Positions 155 to 37,045 of a DNA stretch of 64,000 bases are shown piece by piece. This DNA is from a virus (Duplodnaviria; Caudoviricetes): positions 1-64,000 of IMG/VR virus record IMGVR_UViG_2700988920_000001; one strand, 5' to 3'. The position numbers and the translations under genes are program-made. The notes under the pieces are model-generated. The model saw nothing but the letters and a program-made list of their open reading frames with translations. It searched no databases and had not been told where the DNA came from. How positions within the stretch are numbered: position 1 is the stretch's first letter; each line of letters opens with the position of its first letter.

Positions 155-652
155 ATGAATATTTTTCAGACTCAGCGCTGTCCTATCGAGTCAGCTCGCG
201 AACACTGCAACATCCACCGTAACAGCCAGCTTAAAGAAGGCGTACAGATGCTTTCTACGGCGCACCGCGTGCTTGACGGCGACCTAGCCGATGACCGTCT
301 ATATAAGGTTTGTCAGCCTGGCAACCGCTTTACGAAATGGGCGCGTGAGTCTGACAAGAATTATCTGTGGCTGTGGTCGTACTGCAATGAGCTTAACAAC
401 ATGTTCATTGAGCACAGCGGACGAAGCCATAAGTCGGGCGAGCTTTTAGATATTCTTAAAACGTTACCCCATAACATTTCTATTGGTGAGCTTTCGCCTG
501 TGCCTATTGCTGAATCGAGTGATACGGTGCAATACATTTACAACATCGACCCTGTGCTTGGTCATCGCGAATACTTGTGCGAGAAGTTTTGCGAGTGGCG
601 CGAGCGCGGTAAGAAATTTATTTTTGTTAATGAGCCAGCTTGGCTGGTTTAA
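155..652 (+). CDS. pyrimidine-dimer DNA glycosylase/DenV-like family protein
   Basis: N-terminal MNIF..CPIESAREHCNIH..QMLSTAHR and KWARES..NYLWL pattern typical of this phage family. Confidence 0.6.
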   Translation: MNIFQTQRCPIESAREHCNIHRNSQLKEGVQMLSTAHRVLDGDLADDRLYKVCQPGNRFTKWARESDKNYLWLWSYCNELNNMFIEHSGRSHKSGELLDILKTLPHNISIGELSPVPIAESSDTVQYIYNIDPVLGHREYLCEKFCEWRERGKKFIFVNEPAWLV

Positions 653-1141: not shown

Positions 1142-1156
1142 TTGGTCTCAGACCAA
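1142..1156. promoter_or_regulatory. palindrome TTGGTCTNAGACCAA copy 1
   Basis: TTGGTCTCAGACCAA, intergenic, adjoining the RBS of 1167. Confidence 0.9.
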
Positions 1157-1166
1157 GGAGAAAACC

Positions 1167-2207
1167 ATGCGAAACGTTAATGAATCACAAGTCCGCGCTT
1201 ACCTTCTTACTCACGGCGTCATTGAAGGCCTGAAGCTAGAAGGTATCGAAATTGCGGAAATCCGCCGCTACTACAATGAAGTGGACAACTTTGTATCTAT
1301 CTTGATGGAGTACGGCACTATGCTGTCTAACTTTATCGACAAGGCTCAAGCTGAATCGGGCAAAGAGGTTGCAGGCGTTAACATCACGCTTTGTGATAGC
1401 GTCGCTCCTGCTTGGTTGGTTGGTCGCCTATTAGAGTCGGCGGAGCTGAACGCACCTTCAAAAGCGCAGTGGCACTATTTTTCTGAGAACCTGGCTAACG
1501 CTTTCTATTCTGACAAGTTGAATGCGTTCAGTAATATGGACGTTGATAAGCAGATGCGTCCTGGTCTTGAGTTTGATTGTCCTAAGGTCGAATATAGTGA
1601 GGAAGCTATTCGTTACCATTTGGATAAGTTTGGAAGTAGTTTACCAATTGGCGAAGTTCTATACTATCTGGAAAGGCTTCCAAAATCAGCCACTCACATC
1701 AATCTTCACGACCTGTCTTTTGCAGTCTATTGGCTAAAACGCGAGAACGGATCGTGGGCGCTTTGGGCTAAAGCTGGGAAAACTTTTCACGAAGAATTCG
1801 TTTGGATTAAGCCTGACTTTGTTGATGGCTGTTTTATTGACAAGCTCGTACCGCTTCGTGACCTACAAGTCCGTAAAATCCTAGGCAGCAACCAGGAAGA
1901 GCGCGAGATGATGTTTTTGCCAGAAGAAGGTCAATCTCTAACTTTTACTGAACAGAGACTAGACCCAGCTATCGAACATGAAACCTACGTTGCTCCACAT
2001 TTGTCCGAGCAGTCAGTAGAAATCAAAACAGATCGAGAGCTCAGCAAGCCTCAAATCACCAACGTTCACGAGCTGACCACTATTCGAATTGATGGCGCGG
2101 TGATCACCGTTGACTCGCTTAAAAAGACCGTCAACATCGTTAGCGAATATTGCGACCTAATCGTTAACGATCAGTTTACTGTGTCAGGTAGCGTATCAAA
2201 CTTGTAG
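1167..2207 (+). CDS. hypothetical protein
   Basis: 346-aa ORF with AGGAG RBS. Confidence 0.75.
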   Translation: MRNVNESQVRAYLLTHGVIEGLKLEGIEIAEIRRYYNEVDNFVSILMEYGTMLSNFIDKAQAESGKEVAGVNITLCDSVAPAWLVGRLLESAELNAPSKAQWHYFSENLANAFYSDKLNAFSNMDVDKQMRPGLEFDCPKVEYSEEAIRYHLDKFGSSLPIGEVLYYLERLPKSATHINLHDLSFAVYWLKRENGSWALWAKAGKTFHEEFVWIKPDFVDGCFIDKLVPLRDLQVRKILGSNQEEREMMFLPEEGQSLTFTEQRLDPAIEHETYVAPHLSEQSVEIKTDRELSKPQITNVHELTTIRIDGAVITVDSLKKTVNIVSEYCDLIVNDQFTVSGSVSNL

Positions 2208-2265: not shown

Positions 2266-2280
2266 TTGGTCTGAGACCAA
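2266..2280. promoter_or_regulatory. palindrome copy 2
   Basis: TTGGTCTGAGACCAA directly after hairpin 2232-2263. Confidence 0.9.
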
Positions 2281-2311: not shown

Positions 2312-2641
2312 ATGCAAGACGTTAATAAGATTGTCGCCGTATTGCGCGACCCTAGCCAGGCCAAGTATTACCACGGCGATTTAATGGAAGACGCGGCTGA
2401 CGCGTTGGAAGATTTGAACGAGAAAGTAGAAGAGCTTTCTGTCAAACCTGAGTCGTTGTCAGATTTCGCTGACTACGTGACAGACGCTTCTTCAGCCATT
2501 AAAGAGCATGCTTCTAAAGAAGAGAGTATGCCAAAGCTTGATCTAACGGTTAGCGGCATCCTGAAGCAGCTCAGAACTTCAGTTAAAGAGATAACTGAAG
2601 TGATCGAGTTATTGGAAAGAAATAGATCGGGGTATTTCTAA
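2312..2641 (+). CDS. hypothetical coiled-coil protein
   Basis: TAAGGA RBS; acidic helical sequence. Confidence 0.7.
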   Translation: MQDVNKIVAVLRDPSQAKYYHGDLMEDAADALEDLNEKVEELSVKPESLSDFADYVTDASSAIKEHASKEESMPKLDLTVSGILKQLRTSVKEITEVIELLERNRSGYF

Positions 2642-3681: not shown

Positions 3682-3845
3682 ACGTAGAAGCCAGAATCAA
3701 ATCCACAGGAGAGATTGTCCGTATTGTCTCGTCTTTGTACGGCAAAGTGGAAGTGCGCCACGTAAATCGCCCTAAAATTAAGCGCGACGGCAAAATGGTT
3801 TTTGTCAAAAGTCGCATGTTGTTTAGAGATATTGAGTTCCTGTAA
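3678..3845 (+). CDS. small hypothetical protein, 55 aa (not in ORF track)
   Basis: GGAGG RBS, ATGA overlap; MNVEARIKSTGEIVRIVSS...DIEFL. Confidence 0.6.
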   Translation: MNVEARIKSTGEIVRIVSSLYGKVEVRHVNRPKIKRDGKMVFVKSRMLFRDIEFL

Positions 3846-3926
3846 TCTCGCGTCACGTTTGCGTCTTCTATCAAGGAGGCGCAAAATGCACTCACCGATT
3901 GGACAACTAATCGGTAAGTGCATTTC

Positions 3927-3941
3927 TTGGTCTGAGACCAA
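3927..3941. promoter_or_regulatory. palindrome copy 3
   Basis: TTGGTCTGAGACCAA after hairpins 3858-3885 and 3886-3923. Confidence 0.9.
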
Positions 3942-3963
3942 AACAACCAGTAAGGACAAAACA

Positions 3964-4503
3964 ATGGCAACGAAATACTACAAAACTAACAAACCTGAAA
4001 TCCTGGCTCAGGTGCAGCGCATCAACAACGAGCGTGACGCGCTTAAAGAGGCTGCAGATAAAGTGGCTGAACAGTTCGACGCTAAGGCAATGACTAGAAC
4101 CAGCATGCATGGTGTGAGCTTCGGCGGTTTGGTCCTTAATAACTACGACAACGTAGATCTTTTTAAAGGTCGCACTTCACCTGATCGAGAAGATAAACAT
4201 CTGTGGACTAAGCCAGATAAAAACAACATTAGTTGGCCGCGATCTTCTATCGCTGGCAAAGAGAACAAAGCAGCACTTAAAGAGCTGACTGAGATCTACA
4301 ATGCCGCAGTAGCTTCAATCCCTAAAGTGGAGTTTGAACCGTTCTTTGAAGTGCTTGGCACTGACTGGGGCAACCTTGCTTTTTCAGGGCTCGACTGGTT
4401 CGAACAGGACGGCTCCATCTACTTCGTATCTGGCTTAGATTTCAGTGAAGTAGCTACTGAAATTTTAGGCTCTGAATACGAAACGGCAGAACGAGCTGAA
4501 TAA
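3964..4503 (+). CDS. hypothetical protein
   Basis: TAAGGA RBS before ATG 3964; possible alternative in-frame start at 3886. Confidence 0.7.
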   Translation: MATKYYKTNKPEILAQVQRINNERDALKEAADKVAEQFDAKAMTRTSMHGVSFGGLVLNNYDNVDLFKGRTSPDREDKHLWTKPDKNNISWPRSSIAGKENKAALKELTEIYNAAVASIPKVEFEPFFEVLGTDWGNLAFSGLDWFEQDGSIYFVSGLDFSEVATEILGSEYETAERAE

Positions 4504-4534: not shown

Positions 4535-5968
4535 ATGAATTCAACCCACGCTTTCGAGCTTATCCAAAAACTTGCTTCTACTTCTTCTAAAAAAGACAAA
4601 GAGGCTCTACTTAAAGAATTTTGGGACCAAGCTGAGAACACCACGTTCCGCTACGCCCTTCTAAAAGCGCTTGACCCGTTCATCACCTACGGCATGAGCA
4701 AGATGCCTAAAGTGAGCCCAGGCACTGAAGAGTTCAACGAAGACACCTACGCCATGCTTGAGCGTCTTAACCAACGCCAGCTCACAGGCAACGCGGCTAA
4801 GCAAGCGCTTGAAATTGAACTTGGCCGCCTTAACTTCGAGTCTGGAGAACTGCTGAAAGGTATTATCACTGGCAAACTTGGTGCTGGCGTGACTGCTGAC
4901 ACGGTTAACAAGGTTTCTCCTGGAGCCATCTTCGTGTTTAAGATGTGTTTGGCTTCTAAGTTCTCTGACTTGTCAGACAAGATCACCGAGAAACAGTGGG
5001 CTGACGGCGTAAAAGGCGAAGTTAAAGCTGACGGCGTTCGCGGTCTGTTTATGCAGATCAAGCAGTTCCACCCAGTAAGCCGTAACGGTCTGCCTCTTAA
5101 CTCTACTTCAGATATTCGCGAAGAAGTTGCACAGTTCCTTGCTGAGTTTGCCTGCTACGTTAAGTCAGAAATCATCATCAGTGAAGACTATGACGAGTGT
5201 CTCAGCGATGCCATGAACCTAGACTGCGAGTTGGTAGAAGCTAACGACGTATTCAACGACACAGTAGGCAGTGTGCGCAGCAAGGACGAGTCCAAAGCCA
5301 AAACTATTAAGGTTAAGGTTATCGACGTAATCAGTCAGGCTGAGCTAGAAGCAGGCAAGTCTTTCTATAACTACAAAATTCGTCGCGAGATCATGGAAAA
5401 GTTCTTCGCTGAACACGGTAGCTCATTCCCTAACATTTCGCTTATCCCTTGCTTCACTTTCCACAGTGAAGAAGAGACTTACGCCAAGTTTGAAGAGTTG
5501 AAGAACGCTGGCGAAGAAGGGCTTATTATTAAGCTAGACAACGGCTTCTGGGAACAAAAACGAAGCAAGGGCTGGTTAAAGATCAAAGACAAGAACTCAG
5601 CCGATCTAGTCATTAAGTCTCTAGAAGAAGGTGACGCTAACGGCAAGTATAAAGGGCTCATGGGCGCAGCAGTCTGTGACTACAGAAACTCTAAAGGCGA
5701 GACTGTCGAAGTTAAAATAGGCGGTGGTTGGTCTCTACAACAGCGCGCTGAGCTGTGGTCTGCATTCACTGGAAACCCTGTTACTTACAGCACTACAGAC
5801 AACGGTGTGACTACCGAGCACATTACAGACCCTGAAGCGTGCGAAAACCCTGTAGGTTGGCTGATCGAAGTCTCTTACCACCAGGAGACTAAGGACGGTT
5901 CGCTTCGTCACCCTAACTTTGTTCGCCGTCGTACTGATAAAAGCCCTGATGAAGGTCAAGGCGTGTAA
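4535..5968 (+). CDS. ATP-dependent DNA ligase
   Basis: motif I KADGVR, EGLIIK, WLKIK, C-terminal SLRHPNFVRRR. Confidence 0.92.
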   Translation: MNSTHAFELIQKLASTSSKKDKEALLKEFWDQAENTTFRYALLKALDPFITYGMSKMPKVSPGTEEFNEDTYAMLERLNQRQLTGNAAKQALEIELGRLNFESGELLKGIITGKLGAGVTADTVNKVSPGAIFVFKMCLASKFSDLSDKITEKQWADGVKGEVKADGVRGLFMQIKQFHPVSRNGLPLNSTSDIREEVAQFLAEFACYVKSEIIISEDYDECLSDAMNLDCELVEANDVFNDTVGSVRSKDESKAKTIKVKVIDVISQAELEAGKSFYNYKIRREIMEKFFAEHGSSFPNISLIPCFTFHSEEETYAKFEELKNAGEEGLIIKLDNGFWEQKRSKGWLKIKDKNSADLVIKSLEEGDANGKYKGLMGAAVCDYRNSKGETVEVKIGGGWSLQQRAELWSAFTGNPVTYSTTDNGVTTEHITDPEACENPVGWLIEVSYHQETKDGSLRHPNFVRRRTDKSPDEGQGV

Positions 5969-5978: not shown

Positions 5979-6153
5979 GGGTCAGCGTCAAAATTGCGCT
6001 GACCCTACGTTACTGTAAACTGACAACACTCAGAGTTTGTTTTTGTCTGAGGCTAAGGGGGCTGAGCTGTCGCATTGACTACATTACGGCTCAGTCTGCC
6101 CGGTGGCTATTGTAGGGGGAACAAAGCGGCCGGAGCTTGGTCTCAGACCAAAA
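5979..6153 (+). ncRNA. candidate structured leader RNA/ncRNA
   Basis: four consecutive predicted stems in a ~220-nt intergenic gap; see findings. Confidence 0.35.
6137..6151. promoter_or_regulatory. palindrome copy 4
   Basis: TTGGTCTCAGACCAA upstream of AphA-like gene. Confidence 0.9.
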
Positions 6154-6187
6154 GCAAATTTACCAACAAACCCAATAAGGACTCACT

Positions 6188-6730
6188 ATGAATACTATCA
6201 GCCCAACTTCTGCGCTATCTCTTCACATCATCGTTGCTGTTAAATCTGCTGGCGCCAAAGGCATCACTGGTTACGACATTCACAAGTCGCTTTCTGACTT
6301 CTGGTCACACCAGCAAGTTTACCGTGACTGTAGCCGACTGGCTAAATCTGGTTTGTTATTCCCGACCGTCAAGAACAACGACGGCAAGCCTGACTCTAAG
6401 GTCTATCTATTCTCAGAGAACGCCTTCTCTGACCTTAACAACTTCTTCGTTACCGTTATGATGCCTTTCTTCAAAGAAAAGGCGCATCTGATTACCGAAG
6501 ACTATCTTTTGGCGTATATTGAGTTTCGCAAGGCTGAAGTTATCAGCAAAGTAGTTCAGGAAATGTCTGATAAAGCGCTTCTTGAAGCACTAATCAAAGA
6601 AGAGGCTAAATGGGTTAAACTTCACTCTGAAGCCAAACAAAACGAAGCTTTGTACGCACACAAGTCTAGTGAGGCGTTTGCAAAGATGTCTATGGTTCAC
6701 TACCTAACTGGGACTGAAAATGAAAAATAA
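6188..6730 (+). CDS. AphA-like (PadR family) winged-helix transcription regulator
   Basis: TGYDI, FW-SHQQVYR and GKPDxKVY motifs match Vibrio AphA N-terminal domain as I recall it; 180 aa. Confidence 0.82.
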   Translation: MNTISPTSALSLHIIVAVKSAGAKGITGYDIHKSLSDFWSHQQVYRDCSRLAKSGLLFPTVKNNDGKPDSKVYLFSENAFSDLNNFFVTVMMPFFKEKAHLITEDYLLAYIEFRKAEVISKVVQEMSDKALLEALIKEEAKWVKLHSEAKQNEALYAHKSSEAFAKMSMVHYLTGTENEK

Positions 6731-7691
6731 AGTCGTTCACAATATCGTAGAAATGCGCGCAGATCAGGAAACTCCAGACCTAGACGTGCGCGTAACCACT
6801 TGTCGAAAAAATGAGGTTCACCCATTTGTTAACCTTATGCTGACGGAGAAAGATAAGTACGCGTCAGTCGACGTAGACACCTATCAAGACGTGTATGATA
6901 CGGCGCTTGATTGGGATACTACTGACATCGTACGCTTTACGCTTCAATGGCCTAACGGCGACACCGTCACTATTACTCGCGCGTACCTAGCCGACGTGTA
7001 CGACATGCCGTTGGTAGAATCAGTGATGGCAAGTGTTAAAGGTGAAGTGAGCGGCATGACCTACGTTCGTCAAGACACGCTGGCCACATACAAACTCTAC
7101 GCTTCAGACAAGCGCAAGAACTTGCCGAACATCAAAACCACTGAGTCGTTCATGTACCTGCTAAGCATGCAGCAAGACCTTGATTGGGAAACCATTCTGA
7201 AGTGTTACAACGAACAACCAGAAGTGAAAGAAGTGCTGTTGGAGAAGACGCCTCGATCTGAAGAACGCTTCATTCTCGACCACGCTGTACGAAAAGAGAT
7301 CAAGTTCATTGTTGACAGCTTTGGTATCAAGTCGCATATGGTAAACAGTCGAACGCTGGCTCGCCATGCGCTTCGTATTGCGCTTAAATCGGTTGTCGAC
7401 GCTATCGGCCATCAGGTTTACGGAAAAGACTACGACATTGAGAACATCTTCAATGCTGACGTACACTTCGACACTTTGGGTCTGCACACGCAAGAAAACA
7501 AGCACGGCTTCAAGTATGAGAAAGTCTATGCCGTAGATACTGGCGTCAAACTTTTCTTGGTGTTCGGCGCGTTAGATAATACTGACGCTAAATCAACATT
7601 TGTTACTCAGTTTGACCTAGACGAGTCTGATTTAGAGACTCATCAGGCTAAAGAGATTAACTTTATTTATCACAACCTTACAGGCAACTAG
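6720..7691 (+). CDS. hypothetical protein
   Basis: 323-aa ORF in operon. Confidence 0.75.
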   Translation: MKNKVVHNIVEMRADQETPDLDVRVTTCRKNEVHPFVNLMLTEKDKYASVDVDTYQDVYDTALDWDTTDIVRFTLQWPNGDTVTITRAYLADVYDMPLVESVMASVKGEVSGMTYVRQDTLATYKLYASDKRKNLPNIKTTESFMYLLSMQQDLDWETILKCYNEQPEVKEVLLEKTPRSEERFILDHAVRKEIKFIVDSFGIKSHMVNSRTLARHALRIALKSVVDAIGHQVYGKDYDIENIFNADVHFDTLGLHTQENKHGFKYEKVYAVDTGVKLFLVFGALDNTDAKSTFVTQFDLDESDLETHQAKEINFIYHNLTGN

Positions 7692-8169: not shown

Positions 8170-9336
8170 ATGTTTCTAAAACAATTCATCGCATACCGCT
8201 TCTCTCGTGAACTAGAGCTAAATCTAACCCAACTTGAACAGCAACTTAAAGAGTTCATGTTTGTCCCTTGTGGCTCTCAAGACAAACAAAAGTTTGGCTG
8301 GGTAGAACCTACTGGCGCACTAGGCGGTGACGCTTTTGTTCACTCCGCTGACGGCAACATCCTTCTTACTGCTAAGAAGCAGATCAAGTTGATGCCTAGC
8401 GACACTATCAACCAGAAACTTAACGAAAAAGTTAAGAAGATCGAAGAAGTGGAAGGCCGTCCACTTAAGAAAAAAGAGAAAGACAATATCAAAGATGAAA
8501 TCATCCAAGATATGTTGCCTCAAGCGTTTACTCGCGACTCTTACGCTAACGTACTGATCTTAACTTCGCTAAACATGATCTTGGTTGACGTTTCAAGCCA
8601 CACAAAAGCAGAAGAAGTCCTCTCTCTTCTACGCAAAACAATGGGCTCGCTTCCGGTTGTTCCTGCGATTGGCGCTAGCGCATTCGAAACGTTGGTCACT
8701 GGCTGGATTAAAGAAGGCGCTTCCCCTGCTCGATTCAGTATGCTTGACGAAGTTGTACTTAAATCAGTCACTTCTGATGGTGGTACCGCTAAGCTTGCAC
8801 ACCAAGACCTAGCATCCGAAGAAGTGAAACAACACCTTGAAGCGGGCAAAGTTGCGACTAAGTGTGCATTTGACTGGCAAGGTCGTATGAAGTACTTGAT
8901 GTCTGACGCGTTTGTCGTGTCTAAGATCAAGTGGGCGGACGAGCTTAAAGACCAAAACGACGACATCCCTCGCGAAGAGCAACTAGCTCGATTCGACGCT
9001 GACTTCGCTCTGGCTTGTGGTGAGCTTCGTGTGTTCTTGGTTGAGATGTTCGACTCTTTCGGCGGCTTCCCTAAAGAAGCAGAACAGAAAGACGGTAAAG
9101 CTGACTTCGAAGAGATGTGTACTCACATCGAACTTCTAGAAGAAGCTCGTGATTACGTTGTTAAGTCTAATCGCGCTACGGTTACAGGTCTTCAACGTCA
9201 GTTCAAGATCGGCTACAACCAGGCTTACCGCATCATGGAAGCGCTTGAGAAATGCTGGATTGTTTCTGAGCCTAAGCAGAATGGTGGTCGTGAGATTTTG
9301 GTTTCAGACCAAAAAGGTGAAAGCAATGAAAATTAA
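8170..9336 (+). CDS. rdgC: RdgC recombination-associated protein with C-terminal FtsK-gamma domain
   Basis: PCGSQDKQKFGWV, PQAFTR, MGSLPVVP, ARFDADF; C-terminal LQRQFKIGYNQAYRIMEALE..IVS...GGREIL. Confidence 0.88.
   Translation: MFLKQFIAYRFSRELELNLTQLEQQLKEFMFVPCGSQDKQKFGWVEPTGALGGDAFVHSADGNILLTAKKQIKLMPSDTINQKLNEKVKKIEEVEGRPLKKKEKDNIKDEIIQDMLPQAFTRDSYANVLILTSLNMILVDVSSHTKAEEVLSLLRKTMGSLPVVPAIGASAFETLVTGWIKEGASPARFSMLDEVVLKSVTSDGGTAKLAHQDLASEEVKQHLEAGKVATKCAFDWQGRMKYLMSDAFVVSKIKWADELKDQNDDIPREEQLARFDADFALACGELRVFLVEMFDSFGGFPKEAEQKDGKADFEEMCTHIELLEEARDYVVKSNRATVTGLQRQFKIGYNQAYRIMEALEKCWIVSEPKQNGGREILVSDQKGESNEN
9298..9312. promoter_or_regulatory. palindrome, one-mismatch copy
   Basis: TTGGTTTCAGACCAA, 13 nt before ATG 9326. 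Confidence 0.65.
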
Positions 9337-15302: not shown

Positions 15303-15332
15303 TTGGTCTAAGACCAAGTTTAATGGTATAAA
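15303..15332 (+). promoter_or_regulatory. palindrome copy 5 overlapping -35 of a putative extended -10 promoter
   Basis: TTGGTCTAAGACCAA 15303-15317; TGnTATAAA 15324-15332. Confidence 0.7.
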
Positions 15333-15363
15333 TGATTGACTAATCGCATACCGGAGATTGCAA

Positions 15364-15738
15364 ATGGCTACTGAACTTCCGCATCGCTACACGTTAGTTG
15401 TAGCTTTACAAATTGGCTCTCAAGCTGACATGGTTAAAGGCATGGCCGAGTTATCAAAAATTCTGCCTGAACACATCGAAGCTGACGAAAAAGGCTGGAA
15501 AGTTAACAACATCAACCCTGAATTTGTAGACAAAGTGAAGGCTGTCTTCAAAGAAGATAAAGTGAAGCTGACTGAAGACTTCGAGATCAACTTCATGTTC
15601 TATCTTGGCTGGGTTGTTGGTAAACGTATGACTACGCTAGTCTTGAGCCACGAAGAGCCTGAGCACCACTTCAACTCTACGCCTTGGAAGTGGGCTGGAC
15701 ACAAGGTGGCGAAGAATGAAAGTAGCAACGACAGTTAA
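15364..15738 (+). CDS. hypothetical protein
   Basis: GGAG RBS. Confidence 0.7.
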   Translation: MATELPHRYTLVVALQIGSQADMVKGMAELSKILPEHIEADEKGWKVNNINPEFVDKVKAVFKEDKVKLTEDFEINFMFYLGWVVGKRMTTLVLSHEEPEHHFNSTPWKWAGHKVAKNESSNDS

Positions 15739-18711: not shown

Positions 18712-18726
18712 TTGGTCTGAGACCAA
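18712..18726. promoter_or_regulatory. palindrome copy 6
   Basis: TTGGTCTGAGACCAA, downstream of TGcTAGAAT (18667-18675). Confidence 0.9.
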
Positions 18727-18745: not shown

Positions 18746-19381
18746 ATGGCTACTGCCTCTATGAAACGTTCTGCGAAGGACGACAAAATCAATTTGTACA
18801 CAACACCGGAATGGGCAACTCAAGCGCTTATAGATACTGGCGAATTAGACGGTTGTATGTCTTTCTGGGAGCCTTGTTGCGGCATGGGACACATCTCTAA
18901 CGTCATCATTCACAATATTGAGAACCGTTGGACGCCAGGCAAGACAATCGCCTCTACTGACCTGCACGATCACGGCTATGAGTTTGGTACGCCTGACATT
19001 GACTTCCTGATGTCTAACGACATCGGTGCAGACTGTGTCATCACCAACCCACCGTTTGACCGTGTAGGGACGCACTTCTCTATGCTGAAGCATGCGCTGT
19101 CTATGCCTAACGTGAAGAAGGTGTGTTTCTTTATGCCTATGCAATTTCTTGAAACACCTTACCGTGCTAAGTGGCTGATGGATACTGAATGTCTTGTTCG
19201 CGTATGGTCGTTTGCTGATCGCGTTAAATGTTTGACCAAAGGCGATGAATCTCTGTCAAAGGACAACACAGCTAAACACTTTGCTTGGTTTGTCTTCGAG
19301 AAGAACCACTACGGTGACGCGGCTATTGGTTATCTGTTCAAGCCTGACGAAATGCGCCGAGGTAAGAAAAATGCAAAATAG
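18746..19381 (+). CDS. DNA N6-adenine methyltransferase (phage type)
   Basis: YTTPEW, WEPCCGMG, ITNPPF. Confidence 0.8.
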   Translation: MATASMKRSAKDDKINLYTTPEWATQALIDTGELDGCMSFWEPCCGMGHISNVIIHNIENRWTPGKTIASTDLHDHGYEFGTPDIDFLMSNDIGADCVITNPPFDRVGTHFSMLKHALSMPNVKKVCFFMPMQFLETPYRAKWLMDTECLVRVWSFADRVKCLTKGDESLSKDNTAKHFAWFVFEKNHYGDAAIGYLFKPDEMRRGKKNAK

Positions 19382-19916: not shown

Positions 19917-20399
19917 ATGAAGATACTCGACGCATACCACTTCGATGTCGAGGCCAGGAACGTAAACGACCAAGCTCAAAACCAACACCTTGAGTATATT
20001 TTAGGCTTGGTCGTAGGCTGTAAAGACTTAGGTGCGATAGACGCCAGCACGACAATTTACGTACCGTACGACCTTTGGGTTGTACATGGCGGAAAAGGCT
20101 GCATTACCCCTTACGGCGTACAGCTAGTCCATGGCTTAGATGAGGTGTGTACCAGTTTGGAAGGTAAGCACATCCCAAGACGAAACTTTTTGGTCCCAGA
20201 CCAAGCCTCACCCACCGGACAGATAGTACGAAAGCACTTCTGCTCTTACGCGATAAACCCGTCTGGAATGATGACAAAAATCAATGACAGACCTTATTGT
20301 GGACAACGTGGAAAAGGTGAAGAAGTTACTTATGTTCTTGACGAAGTTACTTGCCCAGAGTGTCTTATGGAGTTAAAACAGGTGAATCAATCTCATTAA
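19917..20399 (+). CDS. hypothetical protein with C-terminal Zn-finger-like motif
   Basis: H..YCG...VTCPEC; contains one-mismatch palindrome TTGGTCCCAGACCAA at 20190-20204. Confidence 0.65.
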   Translation: MKILDAYHFDVEARNVNDQAQNQHLEYILGLVVGCKDLGAIDASTTIYVPYDLWVVHGGKGCITPYGVQLVHGLDEVCTSLEGKHIPRRNFLVPDQASPTGQIVRKHFCSYAINPSGMMTKINDRPYCGQRGKGEEVTYVLDEVTCPECLMELKQVNQSH

Positions 20400-26524: not shown

Positions 26525-26539
26525 TTGGTCTGAGACCAA
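26525..26539. promoter_or_regulatory. palindrome copy 7
   Basis: TTGGTCTGAGACCAA immediately after the primase stop codon. Confidence 0.9.
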
Positions 26540-26585: not shown

Positions 26586-27317
26586 ATGATAAAGCTAATG
26601 AATGAAGACTGTTTGTCTGCTATGAGAAAGTTAGAAGACTCTAGCGTTGACTTAGTATTGACTTCACCTCCATACAACATGAACCTTAGAATACGTAACG
26701 GGAAATATTGTTCTAGACAGATAGTCAAAGAAATCAGCACCAAGTACAAAGCGTTCGATGACAACCTTCCTATGGATAAATACTTTGAATTTAACAAGTC
26801 AGTCATCAATGAGTGCCTGAGAGTTTCTGACTTAGTGTTCTACAACGTTCAAATACTTACAGGGAATAAGCCTGCTTTGTTCCGTCTTATGGGAGAGTTT
26901 CACGATAAGCTGAAAGAAGTGATTGTTTGGGATAAGATTAACGCTCAGCCAGCCATAGGCGCTAACGTTATGAATTCTCAGTTCGAGCTTATTCTTGTGT
27001 TGCAGGACTCTTATCCTGAAAGCCGAGCGTTTAAAACAGCACAATTCGACAGAGGCACTTTGTCTAATCACTGGCAGATAAAACGTGGCAAAAAAGTGCA
27101 TAAAGAACACGGAGCTGTGTTCCCAGAAGAATTGGCTGACAGAGTGATATCTAACTTCTCAAAAGTCGGTGATGTGATCTTAGACCCATTCATGGGAACA
27201 GGAACTACTGGCGCTTCTGCGGTAAAACTTGACAGAAGTTTTATAGGCATAGAGCTAGACAAAGACTATTACGAGTTTTCTGAGCAAAGGATTCTTGGTC
27301 TGAGACCAAAGGAGTAA
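26586..27317 (+). CDS. DNA N4-C/N6-A methyltransferase (beta class)
   Basis: TSPPY before DPFMGTGTT; FIGIELD. Confidence 0.9.
27295..27309. promoter_or_regulatory. palindrome copy 8
   Basis: TTGGTCTGAGACCAA in last codons of the MTase, next to RBS of 27322. Confidence 0.9.
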
Positions 27318-27321: not shown

Positions 27322-28902
27322 ATGTACACATTGGCTCACTACTTCCGTGACGCCCAGTTGTTTGAGTTTCCTGATTGGTTCTACGGCATTCAAATGAAAC
27401 GATATGACGAGGCTTCGGCCTCGTTAGTTCCGTTGGAGCCGTGGCCTCACCAGAAGAAAGACTTAAACTTCTTATTGAGAAAAGAACGTGCAGGCCTGTT
27501 CAATGACGCAGGTGTAGGTAAAACCATTCCTATGCAGGCGTTTGGCATCTACATGTCAGCCATTGGCAATAAGACTGTATTCGCTATGCCTCCTAAGCTT
27601 CTAGGGCAGTTCGCTGAGTCCATGGTGGACACTTACCGTGGCGTCGACCAACACCTAGACATCTTCTTGCTTAACGAGAAGCAGAAAGAAGCTGAAGCTA
27701 TTGTTCAGGGCTGGATAGACAATCCTAAGTCTCGTCCTGACATCGTGATCATGTCTTACGAGATGTTCGCGTTTCTTCAGCCGATCAAAGCGTCCCCAGC
27801 CAAAGTCATCAAAAACTCAAAGACTGGCGCTGAGTACACTCGTCCTGCAGTCAAACCAAAGCGTCACCACCCACTTAAACAGGCAGGATTCAACTGTCTG
27901 GTATTCGATGAAGCGCACAAGCTGAAAGAGCCTTCTTCGGCTACACACAAGCGAGTGTGGCGTTGGATAGGTAGTTCAGAGGGTGAGACTCAATTGGTAT
28001 TGGCAACGGGTACGCCTGTTTACAACCAGCTCATCGACGCTTACGGCATTATTCGACTTCTTACCCCTTACATTTATGGGTCTAAGAAAGCGTTTGAACG
28101 TAAGCACGCAATCATCGACCACCAAAGCGATTACCGTCAGATTATCGGCTGGCAGAACGAAGAAGAGTTGCACCACAACCTTTACATTCACGGCCGCCGT
28201 GTTACTAAAGAAGAAGTGTTGAAAGATCTTCCTCCTATGATCCCGTATCAGCATGACATCCGTCTTGGTACGGCTCACAAAGAGTTGTACAAACGATTGA
28301 TGACAGAGCGAGTACTGGAGCTGGAAGAAGAGTTTATCGACGCTACCAACGCTTCGAAGTTGCGTCAGGTAGCGCTTCAGCTTATCTCTAACCCTAACAA
28401 GTTCTCTGACACACCTATCAAGAACGTTATGGATGACTGGTTAGAGAACATGTTCGAAGAGATCGGCATCTATCAGCACAAAGTGATTGTATTCGCCTAC
28501 TTCAAAGACACCGTTGCCTACTTGGTTAACAAGTACAAACACTTGAATCCTGCGGTCATTAACGGCGCAGGCGGAGACAGTGAAGAAGCGCGTATCAAGT
28601 TCTTGCGCGATCCTAGTTGCCGAGTGCTGTTCTTAAACTGGCGTTCTGGTGGTGCAGGTCTAAACCTGCAAATCAGTCCGTACGAATTGTTCTACGAAGT
28701 GCCTACCGTGCCTGGCGATTTACAGCAAGCTATCGCACGAAGTCACCGAGGCGGTCAGACTCAAGGGGTGCACGTTCACATCCCTCGCGTCTTCAGTACC
28801 GTAGCGAATAAGTCACTTAACCAACTTTTATCTAAGCAGCTTAAAAACAATGAGGTTGTGAAAGATAAACACAAATTACTTGCAGAATTACTTGGAAAAT
28901 AA
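27322..28902 (+). CDS. SNF2-like SF2 helicase
   Basis: DAGVGKT, FDEAH, ATGTP, GAGLNLQ, QAIARSHRGGQ. Confidence 0.88.
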   Translation: MYTLAHYFRDAQLFEFPDWFYGIQMKRYDEASASLVPLEPWPHQKKDLNFLLRKERAGLFNDAGVGKTIPMQAFGIYMSAIGNKTVFAMPPKLLGQFAESMVDTYRGVDQHLDIFLLNEKQKEAEAIVQGWIDNPKSRPDIVIMSYEMFAFLQPIKASPAKVIKNSKTGAEYTRPAVKPKRHHPLKQAGFNCLVFDEAHKLKEPSSATHKRVWRWIGSSEGETQLVLATGTPVYNQLIDAYGIIRLLTPYIYGSKKAFERKHAIIDHQSDYRQIIGWQNEEELHHNLYIHGRRVTKEEVLKDLPPMIPYQHDIRLGTAHKELYKRLMTERVLELEEEFIDATNASKLRQVALQLISNPNKFSDTPIKNVMDDWLENMFEEIGIYQHKVIVFAYFKDTVAYLVNKYKHLNPAVINGAGGDSEEARIKFLRDPSCRVLFLNWRSGGAGLNLQISPYELFYEVPTVPGDLQQAIARSHRGGQTQGVHVHIPRVFSTVANKSLNQLLSKQLKNNEVVKDKHKLLAELLGK

Positions 28903-30053: not shown

Positions 30054-30068
30054 TTGGTCTCAGACCAA
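30054..30068. promoter_or_regulatory. palindrome copy 9
   Basis: TTGGTCTCAGACCAA directly before terminator. Confidence 0.9.
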
Positions 30069-30121: not shown

Positions 30122-33100
30122 ATGTCTAAATTCAAACCAGCAATATCACAACCGCTAGTTCACGTTGACCAGTGGGCTATCCTAGATTACCAAGCACTGC
30201 TAAAACACACGCACAACATGGGGCAAGACCCTGACTGTGTTTACGGCAGCGTAACAGGTAAAGAAATCAACTCGGCACAACACACAGTACGCGCTTTCCT
30301 TGATGCGTACATTCTGCCGATCCTAGACAACGGCTTCACACCTCGCCAAATCCTAGTAGCTCACGACGACGGTCACGCTTACCGTTCTAAACTGCTTCCT
30401 GCGTACAAAGAGAAGCGTGATCAACGTAAGAACGACGAAACTGTCACTGACCCTGAGATTTTCCAAGAGCTGAACAAAGCTAGCGACTCAATCAAGCGCA
30501 TCCTGGCTTACTTAGGTTGTACTCAGGCTCGTGTTAAAGGCGTTGAAGGTGACGACATCATCGCCCACTTCTGCAAGCTGCCAGGCCTTAAACAGGTATA
30601 CACAGTGGACGCCGACTTACTTCGTCTAACCGCTGAAGACACGATGGTCATTCTCAAAAACAAACCTATCTTCCTACAAGATTTGGACGTTGAGAATCTG
30701 CCTAAGAACATGCACAAGTTCATCGAACCGTTCATGAAAGGCGACAACTGCAAAGTTAAAAACCCATTCAAGTACCTCACTTTGTATAAATCAATCGTTG
30801 GTGACTCATCTGACGAATACAAAGGCGTACCTCAGATGGGCGACAAAGCTTGGGCTGACTTGGTTGAAACGTTCGATTTCGACGGTCTAGACGAGCTGAT
30901 CAGCATTGTCGAAGACAAAGACTGGAAGAAGCTGGACTCTTACGTGAAACATTACGAAGAGACCGCAAACGGTAGCAAAGCGCACAAGCTTCTTAAGAAA
31001 TTGCACGACGAAGCAGGTCCATGGCGAACTTGCTGGACTGTTGCTGAGCTTCACCCTGAGCTGTGTTACAAGCCATTCAATAAAAAGCTTACTCAGATCG
31101 ACTGGTTCAAACGTGTTCCGAATCGAGCGCGCATCGTTAAGTTGCTTGAAGACAACTACTGCCCTGAGTTCTTAGAAGACCTAGAGCAGTTCTTACCTGT
31201 TGAGTGGCTAATCGACGCTTCTAACTTCGAAGAGTCTGATATTGACGAGTTCCGTGAAATCTGCGAACAGTCGCCACACATCAGCTTCGACTACGAAGGT
31301 GCAACTGATAACCAAGACTGGATCAACACACTTCTAAACAGCACCAGCATGAAGTCGTATGTAGATGTTCTTGGCCAAGGCGTAACTGGCGTGTCGTTCA
31401 ACTTCGGTAACAACTTGCAATACACTTGTTACTTGACGATCGACCACAAGAACAGCCACAACCTGCCAATCAAAGTGGTTCGTAAGTTCTTTGAGGCTAT
31501 CCCTAAAGATAAAATTCGCGTCGCGCACAACTCTCAGTTCGAAGAAGTTCTAACCTTCACCAACTTGGACGGATACGTGATGCCTATCGGCACTGTTCAC
31601 GATACGGCGATCATGTCTACGTATGACGACGAGAACAAAGAATCTCACGGTCTGAAAGCGTTAAGTAAGACGCTTCTTGGCTACAACCAGGCTTCGTATG
31701 AAGACACCTTGGCACAGGCTGGCGCTACTAACATGCGCGAACTGACTGCATGCCAGGTGCTTAAATACGGCCTTGACGACTCGACGGTAACAGGTCACTT
31801 ATACGATTTGTTCCGTATCAGTCTGTACCTTCAAGATATGATGGACTTCTACGTATCTAACGAGCCTTACGTAAACCACCGTCTAGCGATGTCGTTTATC
31901 CAAGGTACTGACATCGACTGGGAACGTCAGAAAGAAATTCAGGAAGAAGACGAACGCGATATCGAAGAGTCTATGTCTGAGCTTCGTGAGATTCTCGAAG
32001 AGCACTGTAGCAATGTAAACCGAGAAGCAGCAGAAGCGTTTTTCAACGAAGAGAAGAAGTTCCTTGAAGCGTCTGCACGAGACAAGTACGGCAAGATGGA
32101 TCGCGCTAAAGTTATCTCTCGCGCCGATGCCGTAGCGTCAGAAATCGAAAAGATGGACATCGCTGACGACACTTACATGGACATCGCTAACTCGATTCGC
32201 GCCAAAGTCCCTCAAGCCAAGAGCAAGAAAGACAAAGAAGCGCGTGAAGAAGAGATTAAAAACCTCGATCACAAAGTCCTTATCGCATGGATTGTTAAGT
32301 TTGACCTACATAAAGCGCTGAACAAGAACATTGAAGACTCTGTCTACGTCAAGTACGTCAAGACAGTGCACTCAGCAGAGTTCGCTCCTTCAGTGAAAAA
32401 CCTAGACACGGTGGCTGAGAAACTTGGTCTTCCTCTTCCTGGCACAGCGGCGAAAGGCAAACTTGAAGCGTGGGAAGCGTCTGTGCGTGAAATCGACTTT
32501 GAAGCCGAGATCGACAAGTATGACGAGTTCAATGACGATCAGAAGAAGTTCATCGACTTGCTGGCTAAAGCGCGTAATCACTTCAAACCTGATCAGCGCG
32601 GTCACGAAGACTACCAAGCGTTCCAGTCTTTCTGCTGCAACTTGTTAGGCATTGAAGGCAAAGTGTCTTACTCCGGCACTGAACTGAACTTAGGTTCGCC
32701 AAACCAGATGAAAGGTTTGCTGTACTGCATGCTAGGCCTTCCAGTTCGACTACGAGGCAAACCTAGCCCTGGCCGTACAAGCTTAGGGTTCTGGGAAGGT
32801 TCACCTGCTACCGACGCTCTGGCGCAGGATACGGCGCTTGCTGAAGACATCACAGTCAATCCAGAACGTCACTGGCAAGAGCGCGTAATCAACCTTATTA
32901 AGAAGGTGACCGAATGTAATACTCGCATGAGTTTGTACCACAATAGCTACCCTTACTTGGCGCACCCTCGTGATGGTAAATTGCACCCTAACGTTCGTAA
33001 CTGTGGCACTGTAACTCGACGCCCAACTGGCTCGCAGCCAAACATTCTTCAAGTTTCTAAACACCAGAAGAAAGGCGCGATGCGTGGTATCTACATTCCG

Positions 33101-34090
33101 CCTCGCGGTTACTGTGTAGTCCCTATCGACTTTGCAGGCCAAGAGCTTCGTATTCAGGCGTCAGAGACGAAGGATAAAAACCTATTGCAGGTTTATCTAG
33201 GTGAAGAGCTTGCAGGTCAGTACCTGCGTGGTGAAGTGTTAGACATTACGTACGACATGGTAAAAGACAAGAAGGACTTGAAAGACCTGCACAGCATGAC
33301 TGCTTCAGGTATCACAGAGCACTTCGGTCTTGATGAAGCGGGTAAACTTGTACCTGGTGGTCAGCACATTAAATGGACTCCGCCTACGTACGAAGAATAT
33401 GTTGAAGCGCATAAGAACGAAGACCACGAGTACCATGATCTAGCGTCTAAGGTACGTAAACGACCAGCTAAGCAAACTAACTTCTTGCTTTCTTACGGCG
33501 GTACGTCTCAGACTCTATCGCACCGTCTGATCATCCCGGAATCAGTGGCGCAAAGTATCATGGACTCAACGTTAACGCTGTATGCTGGCATTCCAGTAGC
33601 TCAGGACGAAACGCTACACTATGCACGTATGAACGGCTTCGTTACTACGGCTTATGGTAACCGCCGTCATGCTACAGACGAGATTTTCAGTAAGTCTAAA
33701 GGTCCGGTTAACCGTCAGGTTCGTCAGCTATACAACTACCGAATCCAGGGCTGTGCGGCGGATATCCTTAAAGTGGTGCTGGCTAACTGCGAGAAGCAAG
33801 ACCTGTGGGACAAATACAATGCAATCATGGTTGCTCCTGTATATGATGAAGTTGTTGCTTACGTTCCTTTCGAACACGCTTGGGACTTTGTTCAGGACAT
33901 GCGCTCTATCATGAACTTAACACCTCCTGGTCATGCGGTTCCGATGGTAGCCGACGTGAGTGTAGGCCCTAACTGGCAAGTGCAGTACGAACTCGGCCAC
34001 CAACCGACTAAAGAAGAGTTCGACAAGTGCATGAATGAAAATGTAATCCCAGAAGCTGAAGCTATTTGGGACCGTATCGAAGCTGCTTAA
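30122..34090 (+). CDS. polA: family A DNA polymerase with 5'-3' (FEN) and 3'-5' exonuclease domains
   Basis: EGDDII, DADL, GDSSD (FEN); FDYE, AHNSQF, YGLDD (proofreading); DFAGQELR, AKQTNFLLSYG, IQGCAADI, VYDE. Confidence 0.93.
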   Translation: MSKFKPAISQPLVHVDQWAILDYQALLKHTHNMGQDPDCVYGSVTGKEINSAQHTVRAFLDAYILPILDNGFTPRQILVAHDDGHAYRSKLLPAYKEKRDQRKNDETVTDPEIFQELNKASDSIKRILAYLGCTQARVKGVEGDDIIAHFCKLPGLKQVYTVDADLLRLTAEDTMVILKNKPIFLQDLDVENLPKNMHKFIEPFMKGDNCKVKNPFKYLTLYKSIVGDSSDEYKGVPQMGDKAWADLVETFDFDGLDELISIVEDKDWKKLDSYVKHYEETANGSKAHKLLKKLHDEAGPWRTCWTVAELHPELCYKPFNKKLTQIDWFKRVPNRARIVKLLEDNYCPEFLEDLEQFLPVEWLIDASNFEESDIDEFREICEQSPHISFDYEGATDNQDWINTLLNSTSMKSYVDVLGQGVTGVSFNFGNNLQYTCYLTIDHKNSHNLPIKVVRKFFEAIPKDKIRVAHNSQFEEVLTFTNLDGYVMPIGTVHDTAIMSTYDDENKESHGLKALSKTLLGYNQASYEDTLAQAGATNMRELTACQVLKYGLDDSTVTGHLYDLFRISLYLQDMMDFYVSNEPYVNHRLAMSFIQGTDIDWERQKEIQEEDERDIEESMSELREILEEHCSNVNREAAEAFFNEEKKFLEASARDKYGKMDRAKVISRADAVASEIEKMDIADDTYMDIANSIRAKVPQAKSKKDKEAREEEIKNLDHKVLIAWIVKFDLHKALNKNIEDSVYVKYVKTVHSAEFAPSVKNLDTVAEKLGLPLPGTAAKGKLEAWEASVREIDFEAEIDKYDEFNDDQKKFIDLLAKARNHFKPDQRGHEDYQAFQSFCCNLLGIEGKVSYSGTELNLGSPNQMKGLLYCMLGLPVRLRGKPSPGRTSLGFWEGSPATDALAQDTALAEDITVNPERHWQERVINLIKKVTECNTRMSLYHNSYPYLAHPRDGKLHPNVRNCGTVTRRPTGSQPNILQVSKHQKKGAMRGIYIPPRGYCVVPIDFAGQELRIQASETKDKNLLQVYLGEELAGQYLRGEVLDITYDMVKDKKDLKDLHSMTASGITEHFGLDEAGKLVPGGQHIKWTPPTYEEYVEAHKNEDHEYHDLASKVRKRPAKQTNFLLSYGGTSQTLSHRLIIPESVAQSIMDSTLTLYAGIPVAQDETLHYARMNGFVTTAYGNRRHATDEIFSKSKGPVNRQVRQLYNYRIQGCAADILKVVLANCEKQDLWDKYNAIMVAPVYDEVVAYVPFEHAWDFVQDMRSIMNLTPPGHAVPMVADVSVGPNWQVQYELGHQPTKEEFDKCMNENVIPEAEAIWDRIEAA

Positions 34091-35986: not shown

Positions 35987-37045
35987 ATGCTTAACCTATT
36001 TACCGATCCGCACCTAGGGTTGTCAGCACGTACCAACACGTCAGCCAGCTCAACTAAGCTACTCGATTCGAAGATTAGCCGAATTGCTGTAGGCATTACT
36101 CAGAAGTATCTAAACCTGATTTGTGCAGGCGACTTGTTCCACCGCAGCCACAACCGCGAAGACGTGATCGCTGACGGAATCAAAGTCGCGCAAGGCTGTG
36201 ACATCGTTATCGGCGGCAACCACGACAACACGAGCCGTACGGACGACAAGTCATCACTTGATATCGTGGCTAAGGTTGCTGACTCAGTCCTTATGACTGC
36301 AGTCGGCCAGGTTGAAGTTCACGCAGGTCTGCAGTTTGACTCGGGCGAGATTGTGACAATTGTCCCTCACCACTCAAACCAAGAACTGTTTGACCAAGCG
36401 ATTGAAGAGGCTTGCAAGTCAAAAGGTGACTTAGTCATTCTGCACTGCAACTTCAATAACCCGTTTGTAGACGGCATCGACACAGCGCTTAACCTGACTC
36501 CTGCACAAGCTGAACAACTGCTTAAGTCATACAGCTTCGTCGTCATTGGTCACGAGCATAATACGCGTTGGGAAATGAACAACCGTCTACTAGCTTTGGG
36601 TAACACTCACCCGACAGGCTTCAGCGACATCTCTAACAAATACGTTTGGCACTTTGACAAGACTAAAGAAAATCCTTGGTCTAAGACCAAAATTTGGGAT
36701 AAGTCGACAGGCTTTATGTGTCTGACCGCTTCTGACATCTTCGACCTACCAGAGTCAGAGTTTCTAATCGAAGACGGTGCCACACCACCTAGCTTCGTTG
36801 ACATCGTCGGCGACTTGCCAGCAGAAGACATGCCTGCACTCGCTCACCGTATCGGTCTGATTTGGAAGCACTGGAATCCGTTCATGGTGCGCAACCAGGT
36901 TAACGCGGTAACAGAGAAAACTGAGTCTCTGATGGAAGAAGGTTACAAGATCGAAGACTTCAGCTCTAAGATCATGGACGGCCTGCAAGAGTCGCCTGAG
37001 TTGTTGGTGAAGTTTAAATCTGAACTTGAGAAGGTTGGAGAGTGA
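35987..37045 (+). CDS. SbcD/Mre11-like metallophosphoesterase nuclease
   Basis: DPHLG, GDLFH, GNHD, GHEH. Confidence 0.88.
   Translation: MLNLFTDPHLGLSARTNTSASSTKLLDSKISRIAVGITQKYLNLICAGDLFHRSHNREDVIADGIKVAQGCDIVIGGNHDNTSRTDDKSSLDIVAKVADSVLMTAVGQVEVHAGLQFDSGEIVTIVPHHSNQELFDQAIEEACKSKGDLVILHCNFNNPFVDGIDTALNLTPAQAEQLLKSYSFVVIGHEHNTRWEMNNRLLALGNTHPTGFSDISNKYVWHFDKTKENPWSKTKIWDKSTGFMCLTASDIFDLPESEFLIEDGATPPSFVDIVGDLPAEDMPALAHRIGLIWKHWNPFMVRNQVNAVTEKTESLMEEGYKIEDFSSKIMDGLQESPELLVKFKSELEKVGE
36676..36690. promoter_or_regulatory. palindrome copy 10 (intragenic)
   Basis: TTGGTCTAAGACCAA inside the SbcD-like CDS. Confidence 0.8.

Follow-up and report, generated by a model that had tools for sequence, protein, structure and literature searches.

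A PadR-type regulator distantly related to AphA and a repeated palindrome as its candidate operator in a Vibrio phage

The regulator gene and its product

We analysed a stretch of 64,000 nucleotides of viral DNA, hereafter the window, which spans positions 1-64000 in a virus record of 77,837 bp (IMGVR_UViG_2700988920_000001; 100% complete according to CheckV), and focused our attention on an open reading frame (ORF) at 6188..6730. Among named phages, phivp505_B and phiVP505_23LXQ of V. parahaemolyticus come closest to the record: a 5-kb query matches at 78% nucleotide identity over 68% of its length. The ORF lies on the forward strand, starts with ATG and encodes a protein of 180 amino acids, whose translation agrees with the part quoted in an earlier reading of the DNA letters (...ITGYDIHKSLSDFWSHQQVYRDCSRLAKSGLLFPTVKNNDGKPDSKVY...). 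That sequence-only reading had taken the gene for a phage-encoded homologue of AphA, which is the master regulator of Vibrio quorum sensing at low cell density, and had proposed that it may rewire the host's quorum-sensing outputs, act as a dominant negative or serve the phage as a regulator of its own. We are highly confident that the gene product is a phage-borne transcription factor of PadR subfamily 1, belonging to phrog_13512, and a distant paralogue of AphA rather than a captured copy of it. The gene is preceded by its own Shine-Dalgarno motif, contained in a TAAGGAC that is found again ahead of several genes in the same module, and by an exact copy of a palindrome at the distance that had been noted earlier. 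The features of the locus are as follows (no strand is assigned to palindromes, here or below):

6188..6730 (stop codon included), + strand: PadR subfamily 1 regulator gene (phrog_13512), distant AphA paralogue; from the ORF, PHROG, PDB, AlphaFold2 and Foldseek
6177..6181, + strand: Shine-Dalgarno AAGGA, 6 nt 5' of the ATG; read from the sequence
6212..6415, + strand: winged helix-turn-helix at the N-terminus; from secondary structure, with a predicted local distance difference test score (pLDDT) of 93-97, and 40% identity to AphA
6422..6718, + strand: C-terminal all-helical domain, residues 79-177; from the AlphaFold2 model; presumed dimerisation or effector domain, fast-evolving
6137..6151: palindrome TTGGTCTCAGACCAA, exact, 36 nt 5' of the regulator ATG; candidate autoregulation operator

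PHROG and PDB searches, structure modelling followed by Foldseek, and profile-profile alignment with hhalign agree with one another, and the protein can therefore be described as a PadR subfamily 1 regulator with an AphA-like architecture. The PHROG family phrog_13512, annotated as "transcriptional regulator", was matched over its full length (E 2.8e-55, 187.9 bits), residues 8-179 aligning with profile positions 4-176 out of 178. When the PDB was searched with phmmer, the top match was V. cholerae AphA (1yg2; E 6.9e-9, residues 13-87), followed by the PadR-family structures 8ioi and 5x11. An AlphaFold2 model based on a 134-row alignment, which replaced a discarded earlier model made from 5 rows (pLDDT 59), reached a mean pLDDT of 84.5. 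In this model, the winged helix-turn-helix (residues 11-80, pLDDT 93-97) is formed by helices 9-24, 28-34 and 41-53 and by wing strands 57-62 and 70-75, and the C-terminal domain by helices 79-97, 104-113, 116-126 and 129-177 (pLDDT 62-95). The top Foldseek matches of the model were the complex of B. subtilis PadR with its operator (5x11; E 9e-5) and M. tuberculosis Rv1176c (8ioi), with probability 1.00, and AphA was absent among the best 50 matches listed. Moreover, hhalign against an alignment of AphA proteins gave a probability of 99.8% (E 1.2e-27) and a colinear match over 142 columns, in which the C-terminal domain is colinear with that of AphA at low per-column confidence. The Pfam search counts against the assignment, as the PadR family PF03551 remained below its curated cut-off of 27 (14.2 bits, E 0.044; 15.5 bits when searched from the DNA). 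Three relatives of the regulator carry PF03551 in a precomputed table, and the NCBIfam search of the 180-residue protein matched no family.

At the level of single residues, the phage protein keeps G28, Y29, Y45 and P68, which are invariant in the family. According to the HMMER alignment to 5x11, Y29 and Y45 are the equivalents of PadR Tyr20 and Tyr42, and both are invariant in 134 relatives. Residues H41, Q42, Q43 and Y45 align with His38, Ser39, Gln40 and Tyr42, the base-contacting residues of PadR (PMC5728393), and all four are identical in AphA. The same alignment places Ser70 at the position of PadR Lys67, a family signature whose loss costs PadR 65-fold in affinity (PMC5728393), while K71, the equivalent of the neighbouring Lys68, is kept. 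Of the three signature residues of the subfamily, two are therefore present. Overall, the protein resembles PadR in its fold, 5x11 being its best Foldseek match, and in the kept equivalents of Tyr20, Tyr42 and His38 (Y29, Y45 and H41), but it shares only 19-24% identity with PadR and differs from it at the Lys67 position. PadR is released from its operator by phenolic acids, whereas no effector is predicted for the phage protein.

Relation to AphA

In Vibrio, Photobacterium, Grimontia and Enterovibrio, the AphA orthologues that we compared carry the motifs TGYDITKEFS..FWKASHQQVYRELNK..EGKPDRKVY and are 179-193 amino acids long, so that the motifs and the similar length given in the sequence-only reading proved correct. 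BLASTP against AphA of V. cincinnatiensis gave 40% identity over 81 N-terminal amino acids (E 6e-17), and the C-terminal half of the phage protein is approximately 7% identical to that of AphA over 97 aligned positions; the divergence of the C-terminal region, also noted before, is thus confirmed. Taken with the phmmer and hhalign values, the BLASTP result puts the similarity to AphA well above chance. The two proteins are alike in length (179-193 versus 180 amino acids) and in their colinear two-domain architecture, AphA is the best sequence match among solved structures, and the winged helix-turn-helix domains are 39-49% identical, with TGYDI, SHQQVYR and GKPD.KVY in common. They differ in the loop between helices alpha2 and alpha3, which is two residues shorter in the phage protein, and in the wing, which reads NNDGKPDSK in the phage protein and PQEGKPDRK in AphA. 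Moreover, the gene is borne by a phage and does not lie at the chromosomal aphA locus, and its 40% identity over 81 residues compares with at least 84% between AphA orthologues (PMC3440409).

A search of 201 Vibrio genomes gave a match to the phage protein in 196 of them (best E 5.8e-12), with a second one in 15 genomes. Of the matches, 150 were listed and 61 more were unlisted. All listed matches but one have an N-terminal footprint (149/150; start 12-22, end 76-101) at 36-49% identity, and the remaining one covers residues 19-139 at 32% identity. Identity of the matched locus as aphA was confirmed locus by locus for four genomes, in which the AphA locus had been fetched beforehand and in which the sole match falls inside it. 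No full-length or high-identity copy was found among the listed matches in the 201 Vibrio genomes. On this evidence, drawn from sequence comparison, AphA appears to be the nearest counterpart of the phage protein on Vibrio chromosomes.

An exhaustive profile search retrieved 789 relatives at E <= 1e-3, and about 20 representatives outscore the first one from the AphA clade (E 1.6e-12). SHQQVYRE or GKPDRKVY is present in dozens of subfamily representatives, residues H41, Q42, Q43 and R46 are at least 90% conserved over 134 of them, and the HQQ.YR motif occurs in Rv1176c as well. The "essentially intact" recognition helix, which had been read as a sign of AphA, is therefore a property of the subfamily and not of AphA, and the HQQ.YR motif implies no specificity for AphA boxes.

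Phylogenetic trees point in the same direction. A quick tree of 140 rows was followed by a careful one of 55 rows, hand-picked from both sides of the first. In the careful tree, AphA orthologues form a tight clade within larger clades of 24 rows (support 100/98) and 30 rows (99/97), which hold zero phage proteins, and the quick tree gave the same picture, with AphA apart from the phage proteins. The protein studied here groups with that of phiVP505 (99/97), then with two metagenomic proteins (98/88) and then with the type found in phage K478b (90/92); the types of phages MAR10 and D65 branch elsewhere on the tree. When the clade of the window's protein was forced together with AphA in the 55-row set, the approximately unbiased test gave a log-likelihood difference of 28.7 and p 0.030, a value that is somewhat optimistic because the group was named after the first tree had been seen. 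Thus, the earlier idea of a phage AphA homologue stands in the broad sense, as phmmer, BLASTP and hhalign support a PadR subfamily 1 protein of AphA-like architecture, but not in the sense of orthology: a PadR phylogeny had been suggested as a check, and it places the protein outside the AphA clade. On these comparisons, we regard the phage protein as an AphA-like PadR paralogue.

As to its distribution, all 56 phage records matched by the protein in a tblastn search are Vibrio phages. The named relatives on the phage side of the tree are Vibrio and Photobacterium proteins, two of which lie on contigs of ~85-95 kb (one labelled as a plasmid), and a V. scophthalmi relative sits on a contig of ~30 kb. 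The family also occurs in phages that share little else with this one, since only 6 of its 97 ORFs are shared with MAR10 and 1 of 97 with D65, against 57 of 97 with K478b; the copy in this phage is 29% identical to that of MAR10 and belongs to a separate subclade. A word-index protein search returned 5 proteins at E <= 1e-3 among 163 candidates, a pattern scan of 185,579 species genomes and of IMG/VR confirmed no close relatives, and a metagenome scan gave 80 loci, of which 74 match the N-terminal part only and 6 extend into the C-terminal half at 25-35% identity.

The idea of a phage AphA homologue is already known, both from annotation and in print, and is not new with the sequence-only reading. 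The homologue in phiVP505_23LXQ, 74% identical, is annotated as "transcriptional regulator" with the note "aphA". A prophage-encoded "AphA homolog" assigned to phrog_13512 has been described from Vibrio of Sargassum biofilms (PMC13670528; Environ Microbiome 2026;21:123). It was compared with MAR10 YP_007111862.1 and placed in a separate viral clade at ~35% identity to the host AphA; a C-terminal homodimer was predicted, and effects on quorum sensing and on a lysogenic switch were speculated upon (PMC13670528). In an earlier paper from the same group, viral aphA was listed among biofilm genes (PMC11295528). The protein described here is a full-length match to the same phrog_13512. However, that work deals with inducible prophages, whereas no integrase was detected in the present phage, and the available part of the paper (PMC13670528) ties its homolog to no DNA motif, unlike the link to a palindrome that we propose below.

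The palindrome and its possible reader

The palindrome preceding the regulator gene is one of many. Within the window, TTGGTCT-N-AGACCAA occurs 11 times exactly, twice with one mismatch and twice with two mismatches; 0.30 matches with up to two mismatches would be expected from 100 shuffles, none of which reached the observed 15. Outside the window, the record has one further exact copy, the twelfth, at 77239. All copies with at most one mismatch are found in the rightward-transcribed part of the genome, and 12 of these 14 lie 10-53 nt upstream of a start codon equipped with a Shine-Dalgarno-like motif. The symmetry reaches into the flanks, where position -1 is Y and position +15 is R; no other flank conservation was seen. 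Besides the copy at 6137..6151, the window holds the following copies with at most one mismatch:

1142..1156: exact, 10 nt 5' of the ATG of 1167..2207
2266..2280: exact, directly after a terminator-like hairpin (2231-2264), 31 nt 5' of the ATG of 2312..2641
3927..3941: exact, 22 nt 5' of the ATG opening a 179-aa frame
9298..9312: one mismatch (TTGGTTTCAGACCAA), 13 nt 5' of an ATG
15303..15317: exact, 46 nt 5' of the in-frame ATG 15364 (124 aa of ORF 15358..15738)
18712..18726: exact, 19 nt 5' of the ATG of 18746..19381
20190..20204: one mismatch, inside ORF 19917..20399
26525..26539: exact, 46 nt 5' of the ATG of 26586..27317
27295..27309: exact, 12 nt 5' of the ATG of an SNF2-type helicase gene, 27322..28902
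30054..30068: exact, 53 nt 5' of the ATG of 30122..34090
36676..36690: exact, inside ORF 35987..37045
41191..41205: exact, 21 nt 5' of the ATG of 41227..41874

Several copies stand directly after terminator-like hairpins, and the one at 18712..18726 lies downstream of both such a hairpin (18634-18657) and a promoter-like site (18647-18675). Promoter-like sites as a whole were not above chance in positions 1-20000 (22 versus 25.8 expected). A role of the palindrome as a sigma-70 promoter was set aside, as most copies are without a usable -10 element, and so was a role as promoter of a phage RNA polymerase, since none was found among the large unknown ORFs, those without a Pfam match. A literature search found no published mention of the 15-mer.

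The palindrome is shared by a group of related phages. It occurs 15 times in phiVP505_23LXQ (at most one mismatch) and 39 times in K478b (at most two), and exact copies number 32 in 51E28.4, 33 in K120 g1, 33 in K45 and 31 in 264E42.1. Together with the present phage, these make seven palindrome phages with 12-39 copies each, and all seven carry a PadR-like gene whose product combines the short alpha2-alpha3 loop with a wing of the form N[NDE]GKPD[SA]K. The PadR-like proteins of these phages form one clade (90/92). MAR10 and D65, which have PadR-like proteins of other clades, hold no copy of the palindrome, and Pseudomonas phage PMBT3, a distant capsid relative, has neither the palindrome nor a PadR-like gene. 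No copy was found in the fetched AphA loci or in the 80 metagenome loci, and a scan of IMG/VR gave, among the matches listed, contigs with a single copy only. The gene itself is intact in all seven related phages checked, where it encodes a full-length protein of 177-180 amino acids, stands in the same place and has its own Shine-Dalgarno motif and an upstream palindrome. The latter lies 35-36 nt 5' of the gene in this phage, phiVP505_23LXQ, K120 g1 and 51E28.4, and 44 nt 5' of it in K478b.

Short conserved repeats just upstream of many translation starts are known from Cluster K mycobacteriophages as start-associated sequences, and the palindrome resembles them in being a short repeat before many starts of one phage group. 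It differs from them in being a perfect palindrome, in its limitation to the non-structural module and in being inherited together with a PadR-type regulator. A different start-associated repeat was seen in MAR10, where a 20-nt sequence of its own, CCTAAGTGCCTAGGAGGTTT, occurs nine times and ends in a Shine-Dalgarno motif.

Our tentative explanation, which we hold at somewhat less than even confidence, is that the protein is a dimeric, self-regulating repressor of the phage's early and middle genes acting through the palindrome. A dimer would bind the phage's own Y-TTGGTCT-N-AGACCAA-R in the leaders of early and middle genes (replication, recombination), including the site 36 nt before its own start codon. 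Bound between the promoter or terminator and the ribosome-binding site, it would act as a repressor or as a roadblock; in this way the protein may curb its own production and switch off or time the early and middle module in a virulent phage relying on the host RNA polymerase. A search of the 77.8-kb record turned up neither a tyrosine integrase nor a serine recombinase, nor is one annotated in phiVP505_23LXQ. A role as lysogeny repressor is therefore unlikely, as neither integrase nor resolvase was found. Judging from its gene content, the phage looks virulent and dependent on the host polymerase, and a temporal regulator is thus plausible.

Perfect two-fold symmetry around a free centre is classically taken as the mark of a protein that binds DNA as a dimer. 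In addition to the symmetry, the co-inheritance with the regulator, the copy before its gene, a core like that of the family's sites and the loop and wing peculiarities shared within the clade all speak, at the level of sequence, for binding by this protein. In 5x11, PadR sits as a dimer on a site that has two-fold symmetry and a TG...CA core, and the phage palindrome has such a core. The site of B. subtilis PadR is CNTGNA-N6-TNCANG, that is TG-N10-CA, within an operator of 18 bp (PMC5728393), and the AphA site determined by chromatin immunoprecipitation and sequencing, ATGCAA-N4-TTGCAT, likewise has TG-N10-CA (PMC6855506). The palindrome has TG-N9-CA, a spacing that may go with the features of the clade, namely the shorter alpha2-alpha3 loop and the N-[NDE]-G-K-P-D-[SA]-K wing, in which Ser takes the place of a Lys or Arg conserved in the family.

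A number of observations weigh against the regulator as reader of the palindrome. The spacing of its core falls 1 bp short of that in the two characterised sites, and H41, Q42 and Q43, being as in AphA, point to a half-site like that of AphA or PadR and not to a novel one. The Lys67 equivalent, whose loss costs 65-fold in affinity in PadR, is Ser70 (PMC5728393). The palindrome phages are one lineage, 57 of the 97 ORFs of this phage having a match in K478b, so that any shared protein could bind the palindrome and the co-occurrence may be a mere result of descent. Of the 57 proteins shared with K478b, the regulator belongs to the five least conserved (32% overall), and its winged helix-turn-helix is 48-53% identical between palindrome phages, which is no closer than to palindrome-free D65 (48%), yet the palindrome is invariant. 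Two other candidate DNA-binding proteins are better conserved with K478b: the product of 155..652 (phrog_624, "DNA binding protein"; 62%) and that of 15358..15738 (54%), whose homologue in phiVP505_23LXQ is annotated as helix-turn-helix. Neither gave a PDB or a Pfam match. Furthermore, transcription must run through the copies that lie 10-13 nt from a start codon, and an RNA hairpin is therefore an equally simple explanation. Finally, in K120 g1 the central base on the strand of the PadR-like gene is C in 26 of the 33 copies and G (5), A (1) or T (1) in the others, a strand bias that a symmetric dimer does not predict and that hints at a strand-specific constraint; the bias is far less marked in K478b (16 C, 10 G) and missing from this phage (3 C, 6 G), and these two phages and phiVP505 together give 25 C to 19 G.

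In an alternative that we consider possible but doubtful, the protein is an ordinary local or effector-responsive regulator of the PadR type with another operator, controlling for example the next gene (6720..7691), while the palindromes form a leader RNA hairpin that would serve RNA stability, processing or the control of translation, or are the site of another DNA-binding protein of the phage. PadR subfamily 1 proteins are typically effector-released local repressors (PMC5728393), and the stop codon of the regulator gene overlaps the start of 6720..7691 by 11 nt; no other recurring inverted repeat is conspicuous in the genome, however. That the palindrome acts in RNA is suggested by the transcribed copies near start codons, by those that directly follow terminator-like hairpins and by the central-letter bias of K120 g1. 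As RNA it would fold into a weak hairpin with a stem of 6 bp and a loop of 3 nt, whereas two-fold symmetry that is perfect over 15-17 bp, around a free base at the centre, is what a dimeric binder would leave. The repeat of MAR10 shows that leader repeats exist without the palindrome, and the two better conserved DNA-binding candidates offer other readers; against a palindrome unrelated to the regulator stands the conserved position of a copy upstream of the regulator gene in five phages. It is far less probable, and in our view very improbable, that the gene is a drifting passenger without function in this phage. Its conservation is low (32%, where most proteins shared with K478b reach 45-84%) and a conserved basic residue of the wing is lost, but in 7/7 related phages checked the ORF is intact at 177-180 amino acids and has its own Shine-Dalgarno motif and upstream palindrome, and the invariant residues G28, Y29, Y45 and P68 are kept in a winged helix-turn-helix that is modelled confidently.

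The remaining explanation looks to the host, and we find it unlikely. In vibrios, phage receptors and defences are under quorum-sensing control, and there is wide interest in phages that eavesdrop on quorum sensing or disturb it. The phage protein could bind the host's AphA-type boxes, or titrate AphA or pair with it, so that the low-cell-density programme (qrr, opaR/luxR, surface, defence) would be locked or distorted during infection. We give equally little credence to its more specific form, in which the protein occupies or competes at host AphA-type sites and holds Vibrio in that programme or pushes it out, for the benefit of the phage, with use of the palindrome possible as well. If the protein did act on AphA targets, a lytic phage hijacking the quorum-sensing master regulon, by means of a diverged version of that regulator's DNA-binding domain, would represent a new route of host takeover. 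A match in nearly all Vibrio genomes searched (196/201), N-terminal only in 149 of the 150 listed as at the checked AphA loci, would suit a mimic, as would the identity with AphA of the equivalents of the base-contacting residues and the occurrence of the family in otherwise unrelated Vibrio phages. The C-terminal domain, only 14-20% identical between sister phages, would fit an arms race or a switching of partners; a heterodimer with AphA is nevertheless not expected, because the domain is only ~7% identical to that of AphA. The placement outside the AphA clade speaks against simple mimicry, as do the wing and the alpha2-alpha3 loop, which are unlike those of AphA in every copy from a palindrome phage, and the occurrence of HQQ.YR throughout the subfamily and in Rv1176c. 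AphA boxes are not enriched in the window either, with 2 occurrences of ATGCAA-N4-TTGCAT versus 3.18 expected and 1 of ATATGCA-N6-TGCATAT versus 2.15 expected, a result that bears on targets in the phage and not on those in the host: AphA-like specificity, if present, would mean host targets. The palindrome differs from the AphA box in sequence and spacing. Altogether, the gene more probably regulates the phage's own genes than those of the host.

What is new here is thus a testable link: a group of ~80-kb Vibrio siphophages has 12-39 palindromes each, nearly all of them 10-53 nt ahead of a non-structural gene's start, and one subclade of regulator is always present in them. If the link between the regulator and the palindrome holds, it would provide a defined operator with TG-N9-CA for comparison with the sites of AphA and PadR. 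It would also be, to our knowledge and on the basis of a narrow literature search, the first case of a phage developmental programme under the global control of a PadR-type regulator.

Neighbouring genes and other features of the record

The regulator gene lies in a non-structural module, between genes for an ATP-dependent DNA ligase (4535..5968) and for a recombination-associated exonuclease (8170..9336), and has a leader of 219 nt ahead of it. The overlapping ORF at 6720-7691 encodes 323 amino acids without a Pfam or PHROG family and is kept in phiVP505 (68%) and K478b (41%); its product is a possible co-regulated partner of the regulator. Directly after this operon, ORF 7694-8140 (148 aa) matches phrog_335 ("phosphatase"; E 1.5e-20) and has no counterpart among phiVP505_23LXQ, K478b, MAR10 and D65; it is an inserted accessory gene. 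Further along the same rightward module, at 10303-13828, two adjacent ORFs of 403 and 773 amino acids match phrog_32509 and the C-terminal half of phrog_10818 (1496 positions), respectively, and the 773-aa protein is tail-fibre-like or FN3-like, though it lies inside a "non-structural" module.

Contigs nearly identical to positions 1-20000 were found in RNA libraries, namely in three metatranscriptome runs of one study and in one small single-cell RNA run. Their depth is flat over all 20 kb, and they therefore show neither transcription nor RNA ends. The three metatranscriptome runs are labelled as soil metagenome and contain this marine-type Vibrio phage, with 27/28, 51/54 and 53/54 contigs at 99% identity or more. 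Between otherwise identical strains, positions 4065-4520 (the last part of ORF 3802..4503 together with the spacer that precedes the ligase gene) are a variable cassette: the RNA-library contigs of two studies show about 40 substitutions there, and within it the contigs of two runs of one study have 88 nt swapped for 479 other letters. Lastly, a run of 28 A, which reads as T on the structural-gene strand, stands at 54833-54860 in the gap that separates ORF 54539..54793 from ORF 54909..55868; it may be a genuine homopolymer or an artefact of the assembly.

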